DNA of 63,995 nt, counting the filler, from Porpidia crustulata (lineage: Eukaryota), in NCBI GenBank assembly GCA_964255105.1. It is 5 parts of 5 records of this genome, joined end to end, with 100 filler letters (N's around TTAATTAATTAA, not from the genome) between each part and the next. Parts side by side here need not be neighbours in the genome. Positions count along the whole stretch, not along the records: positions 51,973 to 63,995 come from CAXUWE010000577.1; 4 more parts are not named here. One strand, written 5' to 3'. A model generated the notes under the pieces. It did not search any database. It worked only from the letters and a program-made list of their open reading frames with translations, and was not told the DNA's origin. Below, in pieces: positions 52,851-58,483 of this stretch; within the stretch, counting starts at the first letter, position 1, and each line of letters starts with the position of its first letter. Both the position numbers and the translations under genes were made by a program.

Positions 52851-54086
52851 TCACGACTTGATTGCCACCTCCTGCCCAACGTTCAATGCCACTACGCTTG
52901 TACCGCATCTCCCACTACCCTCGCTCAACATCTCTTTGACCTCCCCAATGGTATATTTCCTCGTCATCACCTTCTTGACCGCTAGCCCTGAGTTCTCCTT
53001 ATCCTCATCGTGGGCCTTGATCCAATACTTAGCCATCAGGTTCCTCGAGATCTCGACTCCGCCCGGTAATCCAGCGCTGACGTTACCGCCCATCCACCAG
53101 GGGTTCTGCACGCGGTCAAATGAGTGGATAAGAGCGGTGAGGGGGAGGGCGGCGTAGGAGACGAGGTGGGAGGAGGCATAGGTACGGATGAGGGAATAGT
53201 TGACACCGTGGGGGGAATAGATGATGGAAAGGGTCTTTTCTTGGATTGGGCGAGTGATGCTCCTCGAGGTGGTGGGGCGGGTTGGATTGGAGCCGATGGA
53301 GCTGGCGGAGCTGATTGAGAGGGCGCTGGAGGCGTGAGAGAAGGTAGAATTCGACTGTGGGGTTGAGGCGACAGATATAGTATTATTCGTTGAGATGGTT
53401 GTAGTTCGCAAAAGAGGGGAATCGGGAGGTGTTACTGGAAAGGCCTGCTGTTCAAGGCACTGATAAAGGTGCGCAGCCGATTTGGAGTGGCGCACACCAG
53501 ATGGCTTGAAAATTGTCTGCTGATGTTGAGACGACGGTGGGCGGTAAGTAATGCCGATTGCGTTGTGCAGGCCCGAAACGTCGAGTTTTGCCGGTATGAG
53601 GGCTATGGTAGCCTCACCTGCTATTGCTCCAGGGGTCGCGCCTGGTATTCGAAACTTGATTATCGTGTTCGGTTTCTTGTCGGAAAATATGGGCAGTGCG
53701 TGCACCCTCGAGGGGTCGAAATGCTTCATCGCTCGAATTCTCTTAGCTGCGGCTGGCTCTGCAAGAATAGTAGTGAGCCTTGATGAGGGGTCCAATTGTC
53801 GAAGAGTCGGCTCATGGCAATGATCTGGCTTGTCTTGCGATACAATCACAATGTTAGGCTCAGGTATGTGAGAGAGGTTCGTGATACATGATGGGACGGT
53901 GTGTTTCGAGAGCAGCCATTTCGGATGCCACATCGAGGAGGGACCGGAGAGCCATGGGTCGACAAGGATGGAGAAGGTTCCCGGAGCTTGGTAGATACCG
54001 GGGGGAGAAGGTGGACGATCTTCGGTAGGTGAAAAGGTGATGAGGAAGGTGGTGTCACCGTTGAGTTGTCGAATTCCAACTGACAT
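52851..54086 (-). CDS. Metallo-beta-lactamase-fold (Lactamase_B_3-like) protein, 411 aa
   Basis: LNGDTTFL, ILVDPWLSG, VSQDKPDHCHEPTL, YSPHG, LIHSF..GG..GLPGG, WIKAHDE. Confidence 0.85.
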   Translation of the reverse strand: MSVGIRQLNGDTTFLITFSPTEDRPPSPPGIYQAPGTFSILVDPWLSGPSSMWHPKWLLSKHTVPSCITNLSHIPEPNIVIVSQDKPDHCHEPTLRQLDPSSRLTTILAEPAAAKRIRAMKHFDPSRVHALPIFSDKKPNTIIKFRIPGATPGAIAGEATIALIPAKLDVSGLHNAIGITYRPPSSQHQQTIFKPSGVRHSKSAAHLYQCLEQQAFPVTPPDSPLLRTTTISTNNTISVASTPQSNSTFSHASSALSISSASSIGSNPTRPTTSRSITRPIQEKTLSIIYSPHGVNYSLIRTYASSHLVSYAALPLTALIHSFDRVQNPWWMGGNVSAGLPGGVEISRNLMAKYWIKAHDEDKENSGLAVKKVMTRKYTIGEVKEMLSEGSGRCGTSVVALNVGQEVAIKS

Positions 54087-55247
54087 GTTGTGGGTGGAGA
54101 TGTTTGAATCGTGCTTCGAAACTATTCGAATGGATTGTAGATTCAGCGACCTGGATACATAGCCGTCACCGAGTCGTACAATGTCGAGGAGTTGATTGTG
54201 AAAGCATTCTCGTGCTCAAGGATATAAGGTGAAGCTGGCTGACAGATGGGATGAGTGAGTGAAAGTGGTAGAAGCAGAAGCAGAAGCAGAAGTGCTAATG
54301 GCGGGTGAGGGTTTGCGACGGAATTCGCGGGATCCACGGGCATAATAAGGTAGTCAAACGATTGCCCGGAGTGGATCTTCCATTTCAACCTCATCCAATG
54401 GGAGATGCTCATCGAGGACGATCTAGCCTTGGCGTTCGTTTATAATTTCTCTGGCTGGCTGAAGAAATGGAGCTGGAACCGGCTAGTGTAAACAGTACCG
54501 AAGCCATCCAACCGGAAAACTTTGACCTAATAGGAAACCCCTGGATACTGGATAGGAATTGTGCTGTTCATGTGTAGATATTAATCATAACATCGGGATC
54601 AAAGCGTGACATATATAGATAAATAATAGGGAAGGAAGATTAAGGAATTGAAACTAGGACGCAGTCGCTCATTCGGTTAAATATCCAAATGTGGCTCTTA
54701 CCGAGTCAACTAATGCGTGCAATTGCTGGGCAAGGAGAGTATCACGAGAATCTGATGTATTGCAATTATCTATGTTTGCCATACTAAGCAAGCTGAAAGA
54801 ACGCACATCTTTGACTTTCGTAGTCAATCACAATCCCTCACTTCCATCCCACAGCCCCCATGGCGGCGCCTGCAACTCGAAGTATCTGTCCACGCTATAT
54901 TGACGTCTTTTGAACCAGCATCTTAACTCAATAATTGACTGTCATTTCCATCTCTAATTCACGATACGGCTTTGAACCCTAGCAATATTCCTTGGGCTGA
55001 AAAGTAACTCGATTATAACGAATAACCAGTGGGGACCGAGCATGTTGGAATGCACAGGAACTGACATTGCAGGTTCTCCAGTGCCACAGCTCATCGCAGC
55101 CTATATAGCGCAGCCCTCTCTCCTGATACTGCCATCGTTGATATAGTCTACCCTGGAATGAGCAGTATGCGAACACTAATACTTGTGGAGGAAGACCGTG
55201 TCATGTCCGAGGCGCAAACACTCGAGACCGCCGCTGGCCATCAAAGC

Positions 55248-56099
55248 TTATTTTGCTGAATCCATTCTTTGCAGCTCGCGACTTTTGAGATCGAGATACC
55301 TTTGGAATTCCACCTCCATAGTGCCGGATTTGATCTCATACTTTTCACTTGACGGGCTGAACTCCACGGAATCAACGTCTTCATGGAATGCGAGCCAGCA
55401 CGACATAAGAAAACCGTTGACCTCCCAAGCAAGAAGACAGTCATAACACGTTGGCGAGTCCACATAAGCATCGTTCTCAGAGAATTGCCTATCAAGTTCG
55501 GACTCGTGACTCTCCAGCCATCTCAGATAGAATGGAAACAAGGTTGGATATCTATATTCCATTTCGTCAAGTTCAACGACTGGATCATCCGTGGGATTTC
55601 CAGGCCAGAAAACGTCATACCAAAGGTATGAAGTTTGCCAATCAGGAAAGATTCGGTAGCGGTATTTCCTCTCGGATTATTGGGCGTTTGACGGAGTTGA
55701 GATTGGTTCATTTGATCGTTTTTCTCGAATAATGGGCGAGTTATACGTCTCATCATTCTGCTCGTGTAATGTTGACCGCCTTGATGTTGGACGACAGGAT
55801 ATGTTGAGGACGCGACTTGCGTCCTTATTCAGCTCAACCTGGATGTTGTACTTCGTTCTTATAAAGATCCCTGTTTCCTGATCCGATTCGTTTCCACCAC
55901 TCCTAGCAATACCACCTGATGAAGTGAATGGAGGACCGATCGGTGTCTTAACCCTCCAATTGGGATTAACCGCAGCATTTGATATTTGGTCGAAGTCCTT
56001 TCTTTTTTCCCCCGTCGCAGAAACATTCGTTCGACCAGAAGGTGGCGAAAAATCCAACACGACATGCTCGTGCGAATTAAAAGCTTGCAGTGCCTCCAT
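55248..56099 (-). pseudogene. Putative immunity/antidote-like gene with one in-frame TAA
   Basis: ORFs 55677-56099 and 55248-55562 are the same frame. Reading past TAA 55679-55677 gives YRIFPDWQTSYLWYD..LDEM..L..FYLRWLESHE..AWEVNGFLMSCWL, resembling bacterial 'IxLxxDYxxxPLW' immunity proteins. Confidence 0.55.
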
Positions 56100-56662
56100 T
56101 GCTAGACTTCTAGAGGTCAGTAAATTGAGACGTGAAAGAAGGTCCGTAAGGGTAATGTGGAAGAAATCAGACGTCGTGAACGTACGAGGTGGGGTTGGAG
56201 AAAATCAATTAGAAGTGGCCGCAGTCTCGGTAAGATTCAACAAGAGTTTACCCTATTATATATTAAATTAAACGGTTCACATTGAGCTTAAATCTCGACC
56301 TAACAAATATTTAATCTCAAAAAAACATCTGAAAAATAGCTGAGTCGAATGGCTCTATTGAGAATTGCAGTGAAAAATGAAGATTTCGTTTCCATATCTC
56401 TCCTCAATTAGATTCCGATCATTAAAACGATACCACGTCAACTCCGCCTGCATAGATACCTAATGGCGTGATAGCCAAGTCTATTGGGCACCCTTTGACA
56501 GCCCTTCAAGGAATTCTGGTCCTAGCATTTAGGCATAGGTGCTGCCTACTTTCTTCGTCGTAGACGGATTCAATTACTTATCATTCTATTTCTCAAAAAT
56601 CCTCTAGATAGGAAAGTCTAGATTTCCACCTTTGTCTCTCAGATCATCAACATCAATCTCTC

Positions 56663-57163
56663 ATGGATTCAGCAAGTTCTCTACTCAAGTCTGGATCAAG
56701 ACTTTCTTCCTCGGATCGCTCAATCGGTGAAGATTTTAAGCGGGAAATTGAGGCAACTGCATTGTCCGATGAAGCAAAACGCCTTATGTACCAAATGATA
56801 GCAGATTCAGTAAAATAGTCTATTCCCGATGTGTTGTCGATATGGGAGATTGCAAAAGACCGCGTCAAATTATTCCCGAATCTGAGATCCCAGATTATTT
56901 GGTTGGAGACTGGCAATAACACGGCAGGATATCAGCACATGCTTAAACATGCGGAGGAGTTTGAGCAACTTGGGATACAGGAGACGGAGTTGGAAGAAGT
57001 TGCAAGGTCCGCCACAACGATGGGAGACTTTGCTGGTTCACAAGGTGGGAACAGTAGGGGTCGTACCGGGCGTCCTGTGCTTCTTTTGGTCTATAAAGAT
57101 ACCCCATTGGCAGTTGCCATATCAATCGGAAGCAATGGCTTTATCGTTGGTATGAATCGATAG
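56663..57163 (+). pseudogene. Bacterial polymorphic-toxin-like domain (predicted nuclease) with one in-frame TAG
   Basis: ATG 56663, TAG 56816-56818, same frame as ORF 56831-57163: MIADSVK*SIPDV..IIWLETGNNTAGYQHMLKHAEEF..GI..G..GSQG..GRPV..Y..VAISIGSNGFIVGMN. Confidence 0.68.
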
Positions 57164-58483
57164 AGTTTCGATAAATACCTCAAATAGGGACCTCCTTTCA
57201 ACAAAGTTGGGCGTCATTAAAGCAGCGGTGCCGATACAGTGGTTCCCGGGAGTGCCAGTTTCCGTGGTTGGGTCCTGCGTCTGCATAGACCTGAAGTGTC
57301 TGGTTCGAGCTATTACGGCTGCTCTTTCGACTATCATATAAATCAGCAAGCGACTGATTCCCAAACAGGGGAGCCATTCGGAGAATGGATATACAGCGAC
57401 CACATTGAGGGCCATGAGGGATACCATTGTTATCGGTGGGATCGTGAGCGCAAGTCGTACGTATGTTCGCCATGAATAGCTTATTTGAAGTCTTGAGTTT
57501 GATGGACCGGAAGAAGCAGTGGCTGTAGGTGATAGGGTTAGAGGCAGTAACACAAGGCATGAAAGGTGTATGAGAGTGTGAGCATCCAGTAGCTCTCACT
57601 CGGGGATCTCGGGTATAATATATCTTGTCTGCTCGCTATCTAAGTCAGTCAGCCACTGTATAGTCTGTATTTCAAACAAGGTCAACTCGTTTATGCTGTC
57701 CGCAGCAGACTGAGGGTCAGTCAATGCAGTGTGTTGAGTACTTCATCCTGTTCACTGATGACGATTTCCCGGCAAAACATGAAGATAATGGTAGACACTT
57801 ACATCATAGCCACGAGAGCCTCAGCTGATTGTTCGTGCCCCGATTTCCATGTTGTGTCAGCCAGACCACGTCTTACTCAACCCTCCATGAAGGGTAAGAT
57901 AAATGTCTCAATGCCCAGTCATCCGATATGTCGATGCAGTTAGGACATCTTGTAAAGACCATAATATCTTCTCACATGGCATGAAGTGGAAAATGGCCGG
58001 AGATTGTACGGTCAAAGGCACGGACCATTGGAATTTTCACCTTTTCAAGACTACCGCAGATCCTTGGCATCATGGCATATTGTTTGTTTTCTGGCCAAAT
58101 AAGGATCTCCTCTCGTCCCCGGGTCCAACCTCGTCTAATCTGGATCCCTGAGGGGGTAAGAGTGGTAAGGAAGGTAAGAAGATTAATTGTAAAGGAGCGA
58201 TAATAATAAAGTGTCTCTTTCATCATCGCCGCTTTTCTATATAGAGATCCCGCTAAACGAAAAAGAGACACGTAATGGTTTCTAACCCGTGTCGCGCACA
58301 CAGCGGCGCTCACCCTAAGTACCCGGTGGAGGTTGAGGTAGGGCCAGCCTAAAGTTTACCTACGGGTGACCCTTGCTAGTGCCAGATTCGCTATTGACAT
58401 GGTGCATCATCTTGCAGCTGTATCAAACATTGTTTCGCTGACAACTCATTTTCACCAAAACATCTTACAGTCTCGAAGTTGGC

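Follow-up and report, generated by a model that had tools for sequence, protein, structure and literature searches.

A decayed toxin-immunity gene pair in the fungus Porpidia crustulata, probably derived from a bacterial contact-dependent inhibition system

Fungal killer elements such as Spok, wtf, the het systems and the tRNases of killer plasmids couple a toxin that acts inside the cell to a linked antidote, and they are patchily distributed and frequently decayed. None of these systems is known to descend from a bacterial toxin-immunity pair; the locus described here is likened to them by description only, through a shared proposed logic. Its counterpart of solved structure is the bacterial CdiA/CdiI pair of Serratia marcescens BWH57 (PDB 7M5F, CASP14 target H1065). 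Toxins of this type end a CdiA, Rhs, eCIS or MuF carrier and are followed by the immunity gene in an operon, whereas the fungal toxin stands alone, is encoded divergently from its partner, and occurs in a eukaryote as a broken copy. The accessible text of the 7M5F report (PMC8616854) proposes H47, E51, H52 and R89 as active-site residues of the toxin and names K5, D9, Y10 and W16 of CdiI as conserved toxin contacts.

Bacterial toxin tips have been recognized in fungi before. As far as its accessible text goes, Zhang et al. 2012 (PMC3482391) report at least 13 polymorphic-toxin domain families transferred to fungi, where a bacterial toxin tip has likewise become an intracellular fungal protein, and suggest that they act in conflict within species or in incompatibility. 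In the cases covered there, toxin or immunity domains move singly, whereas here a cognate pair is linked; the accessible text names neither of the two families considered here, both of which are absent from Pfam. The bacterial immunity-type gene PoNi of Neocallimastigomycota, like the present genes, lies in native fungal chromosomal DNA, but according to the accessible part of that study (10.1101/2020.10.15.341461) it is a lone immunity gene that shares more than 70% identity with its donor, occurs in a different phylum and belongs to a different family. A search of the freely accessible literature returned no account of a linked fungal toxin-immunity pair. Toxin tips in fungi are already known; here a cognate immunity gene was seemingly transferred together with its toxin and is still linked to it, as would suit a candidate fungal poison-antidote module of bacterial origin that is apparently undescribed.

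The window, by which we mean the whole analysed stretch of 63,995 nucleotides (filler included), consists of five joined parts of the P. crustulata assembly GCA_964255105.1, and the two genes lie in the part from CAXUWE010000577.1. Each is present in a single copy within the window (Table 1). From ATG 56663, the + frame translates as ...ADSVK*SIPDVLSIWEI...IIWLETGNNTAGYQHMLKHAEEF...GRPVLLLVYKDTPLAVAISIGSNGFIVGMNR*, and from ATG 56099 the - frame translates as ...NAQ*SERKYRYRIFPDWQTSYLWYD... (asterisks are stops); these readings, and the 563 bp between the two start codons, agree with what a sequence-only reading of the same DNA had reported. That reading let the + gene run from 56663 to 57163; the start holds, but the frame continues past 57163, through two further stops, to TGA 57473-57475. 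As it had also claimed, the genes are intronless, both being colinear with intact relatives with no gaps that would suggest introns: the toxin pseudogene aligns with P0003, its closest intact relative, to which it is 70% identical, and with 23 other fungal-type proteins, and the immunity-like pseudogene with intact P0002 and 43 other relatives. The surroundings are ordinary fungal DNA, with flanking ORFs that carry fungal or eukaryotic Pfam domains (Zn_clus, Fungal_trans, Hep_59, DUF7730 and ApoO) and neighbouring genes that are long, ordinary ORFs under the standard code.

Table 1. Positions of the two pseudogenes and their parts, counted along the window
Feature	Position	Strand	Basis or remark
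Toxin pseudogene	56663..57475	+	270-codon frame, four in-frame stops, zero frameshifts
In-frame TAG within toxin domain	56816..56818	+	translation and alignment of relatives
Toxin domain core, uninterrupted, 114 codons	56819..57160	+	match to 7M5F_C, query 24-113 against chain 51-137
In-frame TAG directly after the ...GMNR end of the toxin core	57161..57163	+	Gln in P0003
In-frame TAG in C-terminal extension	57185..57187	+	Gln in P0003
In-frame TAA in C-terminal extension	57218..57220	+	Gln in P0003
Rest of fungal C-terminal extension (FRGW...GEWIY)	57221..57472	+	alignment with intact relatives
Immunity-like pseudogene	55248..56099	-	283 codons plus stop, one in-frame TAA
CdiI-like domain, residues 4-110 of the 142-residue piece	55347..55667	-	AF2 model, VIA, hhalign
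In-frame TAA, five codons ahead of the conserved YRYRIFPDWQTSYLW strand	55677..55679	-	translation
Spacer between the divergent start codons, 563 bp	56100..56662	.	presumed shared bidirectional promoter, inferred

The + gene is a homologue of the C-terminal tip of bacterial CdiA-type polymorphic toxins. With phmmer, the window toxin matches chain C of 7M5F ('Toxin CdiA') at an E value of 1.3e-13 (54.3 bits, query 24-113), and among the 589 matches at E <= 1e-3 in a representative library, many are the extreme C-terminus of long proteins, bearing out the proposed likeness to CdiA/Rhs-type toxin tips. Pfam labels some of these long proteins CdiA-like, eCIS or MuF; TPS, Fil_haemagg, DUF637, DUF6862, eCIS_core or MuF_C domains are present in nine of the 15 longer bacterial-type matches scanned, eight of the nine exceeding the Pfam cut-off. 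In a genome scan, 410 of 508 bacterial or archaeal stretches proved to be toxin relatives, and bacterial members of the family were widespread in soil genera.

The fold was judged on a model of P0003 (pLDDT 77.5), which stands in for the window copy. With Foldseek, 7m5f_C is its sole match at E <= 0.001 (5.2e-6, TMt 0.65), and VIA places the same chain at rank 1 (Z 12.0, rmsd 2.1, 92 residues aligned), followed by MqsR, colicin D, BrnT and other CdiA-CT RNases at Z 4.4-6.0; the window domain is thus of the 7M5F family by sequence and, via P0003, of the same fold. The fungal toxin domain is presumed to be an RNase. All near-invariant family residues are retained in the window core (E30, G37, H40, H44, F48, G52, Q75, R85, N106, G107, V110 and N113), and H40, H44 and R85 are equivalent to the proposed active-site residues H47, H52 and R89 of 7M5F. 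The position of E51 is occupied by Lys in the window toxin, and it is also variable among bacterial members.

From N- to C-terminus, the window toxin comprises a short helical leader, a BECR toxin domain of the CdiA-CT(BWH57) type and a fungal extension of ~100 residues. The start codon lies 51 codons upstream of the core, and the N-terminus, judged by eye from the translation, is hydrophilic with no hydrophobic signal-like stretch. Fungal-type toxin proteins are 93-304 aa long and lack a carrier domain; the fungal toxin ends in GMN where that of 7M5F has GAN, and it may bear the C-terminal extension. The extension is beta-rich in the P0003 model, with strands predicted at 197-238; it belongs to no Pfam family and has no usable match in the ESM Atlas.

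In bacteria, the gene order is toxin tip and then immunity ORF: at 77 of 80 loci, an ORF of 92-153 aa starts between -38 and +38 bases from the toxin stop, and a profile of these downstream ORFs matches the CdiI of 7M5F_A at E 5e-34. The 'KLMADYQCxPLW' protein, described in the sequence-only reading as usually following the toxin directly, is thus CdiI. The C-terminal domain of the fungal - gene is, on well supported but indirect grounds, a diverged homologue of it. The fungal partner is two to three times longer than CdiI, as it has an added N-terminal half, poorly conserved and with a TKYGLRL-type motif, and an extra C-terminal helix after the CdiI-like domain. When an AF2 model of that domain (pLDDT 87.9, pTM 0.82) was compared by VIA with 48,161 solved chains, 7m5f_A took rank 1 with 93 of 98 residues aligned (rmsd 3.3) at Z 6.9, a level often reached by the best matches of unrelated models, and rank 2 followed less than one Z unit behind, at Z 6.1. 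Aligned by hhalign, the fungal and bacterial profiles share 92-93 colinear columns spanning the whole of CdiI, with scores of 25.4 and 26.4 (P 0.0037 and 0.0028) at a probability of just 9-11%. All 32 decoys scored below this match (19.3 for the reversed profile, at most 15.5 for 30 column shuffles and 15.6 for the toxin family). In the register of this alignment, R, D, W and W of YRYRIFPDWQTSYLW stand opposite K5, D9, Y10 and W16 of CdiI, and the D and last W of this strand are invariant across 45 fungal sequences.

Direct searches gave no such signal. With bacterial CdiI as query, phmmer found nothing in the 3570 ORFs of the window, and hmmsearch with a 77-sequence profile scored about zero, also with its filters off. 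Against the PDB, Foldseek returned nothing for the immunity-like model at E <= 0.001 (best E 2), and in the ESM Atlas the domain matched just bacterial clusters at 0.81-0.82, below the meaningful level. None of the four ORF pieces belongs to a family of Pfam or NCBIfam, nor do the CdiI ORFs of bacteria or the fungal relatives, and in Pfam neither protein has matches such as HET or Het-C. A kinship of the immunity-like piece to WD40 repeats was considered and rejected as noise, since it consisted of weak summed PDB matches with no single stretch passing. The earlier assignment of the - gene as an immunity homologue therefore stands on fold, a weak profile-profile match and the predicted interface described next, but not on phmmer or hmmsearch.

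Modelling the two domains as a complex, which the sequence-only reading had suggested, gave a score of 0.73, compared with 0.01 for the best of three controls; in a benchmark, that score was attained by 51 of 78 solved complexes and 2 of 108 mismatched pairs, and it may reflect the model's memory of 7M5F, thus showing likeness rather than binding. Three runs had at least 83% of contacts in common, with a partner pLDDT of at least 83. On the toxin side, the predicted interface comprises H40, H44, Q75-79, 82-85 and 100-114, and on the partner side it comprises residues 10-16 and W19, i.e. the conserved contact-motif residues. The fungal partner therefore resembles the CdiI of 7M5F in best-match fold, in contact motif and in a predicted equivalent interface, and binding of the toxin by the partner, as modelled, is well supported but indirect.

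Both genes are dead in the window, and the module is a relic. The pair has five nonsense codons and zero frameshifts in ~550 codons, and with these in-frame stops it is not a working toxin-immunity system in this DNA. The first toxin stop (TAG 56816-56818) falls at a position that is Met in the closest intact relatives and Ile, Val, Leu or Trp in others, and a VIA alignment of P0003 residues 22-165 with 7m5f_C places it inside the domain. Logan contigs of sequencing run X1, which is possibly the source sample of the deposited assembly, are identical to it over all 2228 bases, with 0 differences at a depth of ~10; as these contigs carry the same letters, an error in the deposited assembly does not account for the stops.

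For each of the two genes, intact relatives are found across several classes of ascomycetes. Searches of the fungal family, which are word-limited and from which unannotated pseudogenes escape for both genes, gave 29 toxin-type matches, with carriers including Dothidotthia, Blastomyces, Arachnomyces, Polytolypa, Sphaerosporella and Lentithecium. They also gave 49 immunity-like matches, one of which is the window's own piece, with carriers including Histoplasma, Emergomyces, Blastomyces, Helicocarpus, Dothidotthia, Trichoglossum and Clonostachys. In a toxin tree of 246 rows, a branch with an SH-aLRT of 97 separates the window, all six identified fungal rows and 38 short proteins from all 78 bacterial loci. 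This supports the horizontal acquisition that had been proposed and would fit a single transfer of the toxin from bacteria to ascomycetes; the tree is unrooted and was built by a quick method, so that the direction of transfer and the single origin are unproven.

The nearest relatives of the two genes lie on contigs of equal size in three cases (P0003/P0154, 6439; P0204/P0156, 27104; Dothidotthia P0205/P0181, 1158003), and these matching sizes suggest that toxin and partner are also linked outside the window, on three contigs. Among matches on contigs of at least 3 kb, such co-location is suggested for just 3 of 18 toxin-type and 3 of 32 immunity-like matches. The expectation that fungal homologues keep the pairing would hold for these three contigs but, within what these searches covered, is not general. 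A metagenome scan for the immunity-like family returned four loci of 1.0-1.7 kb, with no toxin gene visible in upstream sequence that is too short to judge.

We consider it probable that the window holds a decayed copy of a CdiA-CT/CdiI-type two-gene module that ascomycetes obtained from bacteria and that, when intact, acts as an intracellular poison-antidote pair. The source would be a bacterial polymorphic toxin system of the same type as that of Serratia marcescens BWH57 (7M5F). The intact fungal + gene would yield a small cytosolic protein that is basically a BECR-fold toxin domain without the bacterial delivery part, bearing the short helical leader and, in the window's subfamily, the extra beta-rich tail. 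Its partner would neutralize it by placing the conserved R-x-x-x-D-W-Q...L-W strand against the His/His/Arg face of the toxin, as CdiI does in 7M5F. Both genes would be transcribed divergently from the common 563-bp spacer, and such transcription would make them co-expressed. The biological role of the intact module, which like co-expression we infer, would lie in genetic conflict, whether the module maintains itself selfishly or drives, serves in allorecognition or sets off cell death; no drive or incompatibility phenotype is known for this toxin-immunity family. The spore-killer, heterokaryon-incompatibility and antiviral-suicide roles raised in the sequence-only reading are conjectural. In the window relic, one toxin nonsense codon falls inside the putative catalytic domain and the antidote nonsense codon just ahead of the putative binding strand.

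One alternative is that the genes are functional here, with stops that are spliced out, read through, recoded under an unusual code or due to sequencing errors. The presence of nonsense codons without any frameshift and the retention of every near-invariant toxin residue speak for it, but the alignments with relatives run through all the stops, with conserved residues to either side, which leaves no intron that could remove them, the neighbours use the standard code, the letters recur in the independent X1 assembly, and internal Met starts beyond the stops would lose essential parts; we regard this view as very improbable. More room is left for the suggestion that only the toxin is bacterial and the - gene is unrelated to CdiI, with the D-W-Q...L-W motif, the Z score and the interface due to chance or model bias. 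HMMER detects no similarity, Foldseek returns nothing, the hhalign probability is low and the Z score is typical of best matches for unmatched models. Against this, the chain ranked highest of all those compared is the very immunity protein that pairs with the PDB relative of the toxin, the profile alignment runs colinearly through the whole domain above all decoys, the complex scores far above its controls through the conserved motif, and contig sizes agree for three toxin-partner pairs among the nearest relatives; we regard this suggestion as improbable.

A further alternative accepts both homologies but has the pair serve as weapon and shield: the toxin would be released unconventionally or on lysis against bacteria or fungi, and the CdiI-like protein would protect its producer, or would shield toxin-free fungi from bacterial members of this toxin family. 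The 29 of 32 immunity-like genes on contigs of at least 3 kb for which no co-located toxin was detected, including those of Histoplasma, Emergomyces and Clonostachys, would suit a free-standing shield, as would the wide occurrence of bacterial BWH57-type toxins in soil genera and, from the accessible part of that study, the passage of the lone bacterial immunity gene PoNi into gut fungi (10.1101/2020.10.15.341461). However, neither a signal-like stretch nor a delivery domain is seen in the fungal toxins, the equal-sized contigs of the closest relatives speak for a pair, and delivery by CdiA or Rhs into the fungal cytosol is not known for the BWH57-type family. We find this alternative unlikely, though less so than the two above, and retain the decayed poison-antidote module as the preferred reading.

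A broader proposal, which we put forward tentatively and with less than even confidence, is that ascomycetes possess a family of chromosomal poison-antidote modules whose toxin and antidote derive jointly from one bacterial contact-dependent-inhibition cassette. If so, intact copies may be selfish elements such as spore killers or addiction modules, or else allorecognition systems or cell-death switches, decayed copies such as that in the window would record birth-and-death turnover, and the many lone antidote genes of Onygenales would be survivors of lost toxins. The family extends into medically relevant Onygenales, where its members are annotated just as uncharacterised 'hypothetical proteins'. 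The module would represent a toxin-immunity pair of eukaryotes whose bacterial counterpart has a solved structure, and it would place the BWH57-type toxin family in cells with eukaryotic RNA substrates. As a candidate for a new type of conflict element in fungi, it lends itself to experiment: the partners are defined, the interface is predicted and the putative catalytic residues can be mutated.

Some observations concern the stops and the surroundings of the pair. Repeat-induced point mutation (RIP) was considered as a source of the stops and rejected, as the indices over the pair (TpA/ApT 0.61; (CpA+TpG)/(ApC+GpT) 1.25) compare with 0.70 and 1.26 for the rest of the window. Between 52000 and 61000, a search for mobile-element borders returned just short repeats at chance level. 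Three of the four toxin stops correspond to Gln in P0003, and a relative in metagenome run X2, 93-98% identical, has CAA (Gln) at the partner's TAA, as read from A>G at 55679 in one contig at a depth of 2.9.

The two start codons lie 563 bp apart in divergent orientation, as had been claimed (Table). The sequence-only reading had placed the + gene at 56663-57163; its start stands, but its end does not, as the same frame runs on to a later TGA. The contig is fungal, as had also been proposed, since flanking ORFs hold Zn_clus, Fungal_trans, Hep_59, DUF7730, and ApoO domains. Adjoining the pair is an open frame with long Ser/Thr/Pro-rich stretches, for which only weak, sub-threshold metallo-beta-lactamase-fold matches were obtained (E 2e-4).

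Table. Features of the divergent pair and the adjoining frame
Feature	Position	Strand	Detail
+ gene start ATG	56663	+	51 codons before first stop (translation)
+ gene stop 1, TAG	56816-18	+	followed by 114 codons without a stop, ending ...SIGSNGFIVGMNR
+ gene stop 2, TAG	57161-63	+	then 7 codons
+ gene stop 3, TAG	57185-87	+	then 10 codons
+ gene stop 4, TAA	57218-20	+	then 84 codons
Toxin C-terminal extension	57221-57472	+	FRGW...GEW[IV]Y
+ gene final stop TGA	57473-75	+	frame unchanged from ATG 56663
gene start ATG	56099	-	140 codons up to TAA (translation)
gene N-terminal half	55680-56099	-	
gene in-frame TAA	55677-79	-	then 142 codons beginning SERKYRYRIFPDWQTSYLW
gene codons 211-223	55433-55468	-	
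gene terminal stop	55248-50	-	closes 142-codon piece
Adjoining open frame	52851-54215	-	454 codons

Logan contigs of a public sequencing run (X1, which may be the window's source sample) reproduce all 2228 bases of the pair with 0 differences at a depth of about 10, so the stops are present in reads. Introns are ruled out as their explanation because the alignments with relatives continue across each of the five, and the residues to either side are conserved. Repeat-induced point mutation (RIP) was likewise rejected as their cause, the RIP indices being normal, and a search for mobile-element borders found no flanking repeats around the pair. The first toxin stop is inside the domain, at a Met/Ile/Val position in relatives, and the other three are each Gln in P0003, the closest intact toxin relative. 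The - gene stop falls five codons ahead of the predicted binding strand, and a 93-98% identical relative from a metagenome (X2; one contig, depth 2.9) has CAA (Gln) there. The module in the window is almost certainly a recent relic rather than a working system. The X2 relative differs from the window's - gene at 15 codons, 10 with a residue change, the stop included; seven of these changes cluster in codons 211-223, surrounding the low-confidence stretch of our structure model (piece residues 71-73, codons 212-214), and on this one low-depth contig the region may be a fast-evolving loop.

The + gene has no family in Pfam or NCBIfam. A sequence search of the PDB gave one real match, 7M5F chain C ('Toxin CdiA', E 1.3e-13). 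The authors of that structure present it as the complex of CdiA-CT with CdiI from Serratia marcescens BWH57; the toxin has a BECR fold, and H47, E51, H52, and R89 are its proposed active-site residues (PMC8616854). HMMER, run exhaustively against 1.84 billion representatives, found the domain in 589 proteins at E <= 1e-3. The best ~25 are short, with the domain near the start; most others, which reach 2783 aa, have it at their very C-terminal end, and 9 of the 15 longer matches scanned (374-2783 aa) carry polymorphic-toxin-carrier domains (TPS, Fil_haemagg, DUF637, DUF6862, eCIS_core, or MuF_C). In a scan of prokaryote genomes, 410 of the 508 candidate stretches proved to be relatives, and 80 loci were kept. 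Near-invariant family residues, including H40, H44, and R85, are retained in the window. For a structure model of P0003 (70% identical to the + gene; pLDDT 77.5), 7m5f_C was the sole Foldseek match at E <= 0.001 and ranked first in VIA-align (Z 12.0), with MqsR, colicin D, BrnT, MafB2-CT, and other CdiA-CT RNases at lower ranks (Z 4.4-6.0). The bacterial toxin domain claimed for this gene is borne out by the 7M5F match and the carrier-borne relatives in bacteria, and its homology to a CdiA-type toxin tip is virtually certain.

The tip also occurs on a Bathyarchaeia MAG contig (L012), with a CdiI-type ORF behind it, and one of two other relatives (P0106 and P0137) joins it to an eCIS core domain, the other to a phage MuF C-terminal domain. 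A subset of fungal toxin-type proteins (the window, P0003 at residues about 168-264, P0005, P0008, and P0011) share a C-terminal extension of ~100 residues, predicted by modeling to be beta-rich, with no Pfam family or Atlas match; judging from length and 98-100% coverage of P0003, P0201, P0204, and P0210 probably bear it too.

Of the 80 bacterial loci, 78 have an ORF of at least 60 aa that starts -38 to +38 bases from the toxin stop; the other two end too early to judge. After exclusion of an unrelated ORF (locus L030), 77 align as MxxIKLMxDYxCxPxW..., and their profile matches 7M5F chain A (CdiI) at E 5e-34; the 'KLMADYQCxPLW' motif given for the protein that usually follows the toxin directly was therefore correct. 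The 98-residue CdiI has conserved toxin contacts K5, D9, Y10, W16, D25, and Y98 (PMC8616854). Plain sequence methods detect no similarity between bacterial CdiI and the - gene protein. Relatives of the fungal protein numbered 49 (one the window's own piece). In an hhalign comparison of the fungal and bacterial profiles, 92-93 colinear columns spanned the whole of CdiI, with scores of 25.4 and 26.4 (P 0.0037 and 0.0028, probability only 9-11%), and every decoy scored lower: 19.3 for the reversed CdiI alignment, at most 15.5 for 30 column-shuffled versions, and 15.6 for the toxin family. The register places fungal R-x-x-x-D-W-Q...L-W on K5, D9, Y10, and W16. For the 142-residue piece from the window, AlphaFold gave a confident model (pLDDT 87.9, pTM 0.82). 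Foldseek gave no match with it. When 48,161 representative chains were searched all-against-all by structure, 7m5f_A ranked first (Z 6.9, rmsd 3.3, 93/98 residues). That Z alone is ordinary (rank 2, Z 6.1), but the top chain is the very one that pairs with the solved relative of the toxin. The - gene protein very probably ends in a diverged CdiI. Its N-terminal half is poorly conserved save for a short L-x-TKYGLRL motif, common to 45 aligned relatives and without counterpart in bacterial CdiI.

Complex prediction with the two uninterrupted window pieces scored 0.73 (three runs, 0.72-0.74); among solved complexes 51 of 78 attain that level, among mismatched pairs 2 of 108. None of 3 controls scored above 0.01. 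The runs agreed in at least 83% of contacts, with partner pLDDT of at least 83. On the toxin side the predicted interface comprises H40, H44, Q75-79, 82-85, and 100-114, and on the partner side residues 10-16 and W19; this is the face described for 7M5F. The two fungal domains are predicted to bind in CdiI fashion; because a like complex is already solved, the score shows likeness, not binding, and may be model memory.

Toxin-type matches number 29, including Dothidotthia, Blastomyces, Arachnomyces, Polytolypa, Sphaerosporella, and Lentithecium; immunity-like matches include annotated hypothetical proteins of Histoplasma, Emergomyces, Blastomyces, Helicocarpus, Dothidotthia, Trichoglossum, and Clonostachys. 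In an unrooted toxin tree (246 rows, 153 columns kept, quick method), a branch with SH-aLRT 97 separates the window, all six named fungal rows, and 38 unnamed short proteins from all 78 bacterial loci. That transfer went from bacteria to fungi is suggested by how broad the family is in bacteria and by its functional setting there. A joint bacterial origin of toxin and partner is probable. In three cases the nearest relatives of both genes are on same-sized contigs (6439, 27104, and 1158003), from which we infer linkage outside the window. For 15 of 18 toxin matches and 29 of 32 immunity-like matches (contigs >= 3 kb) no partner was detected on a same-sized contig, which does not refute pairing because the searches were word-limited and could not see pseudogenes that lack annotation.

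Transfer to fungi is reported for at least 13 polymorphic-toxin domains, and occasionally for immunity domains (Zhang et al., 2012; PMC3482391). A preprint reports that gut fungi have an immunity gene on its own (10.1101/2020.10.15.341461). Literature searches, confined to the main text of openly accessible papers, found neither the BWH57-type toxin family described from fungi nor a cognate pair described as linked there. For intact copies we lean slightly towards an intracellular poison-antidote role, the main rival being that they serve as weapon and shield. Seven annotated immunity-like genes (P0166, P0171, P0173-P0175, P0184, and P0190) from Histoplasma, Emergomyces, Blastomyces gilchristii, Helicocarpus, and Clonostachys had no toxin-type match from the same contig, and may be lone antidotes or neighbours of unannotated toxin pseudogenes.
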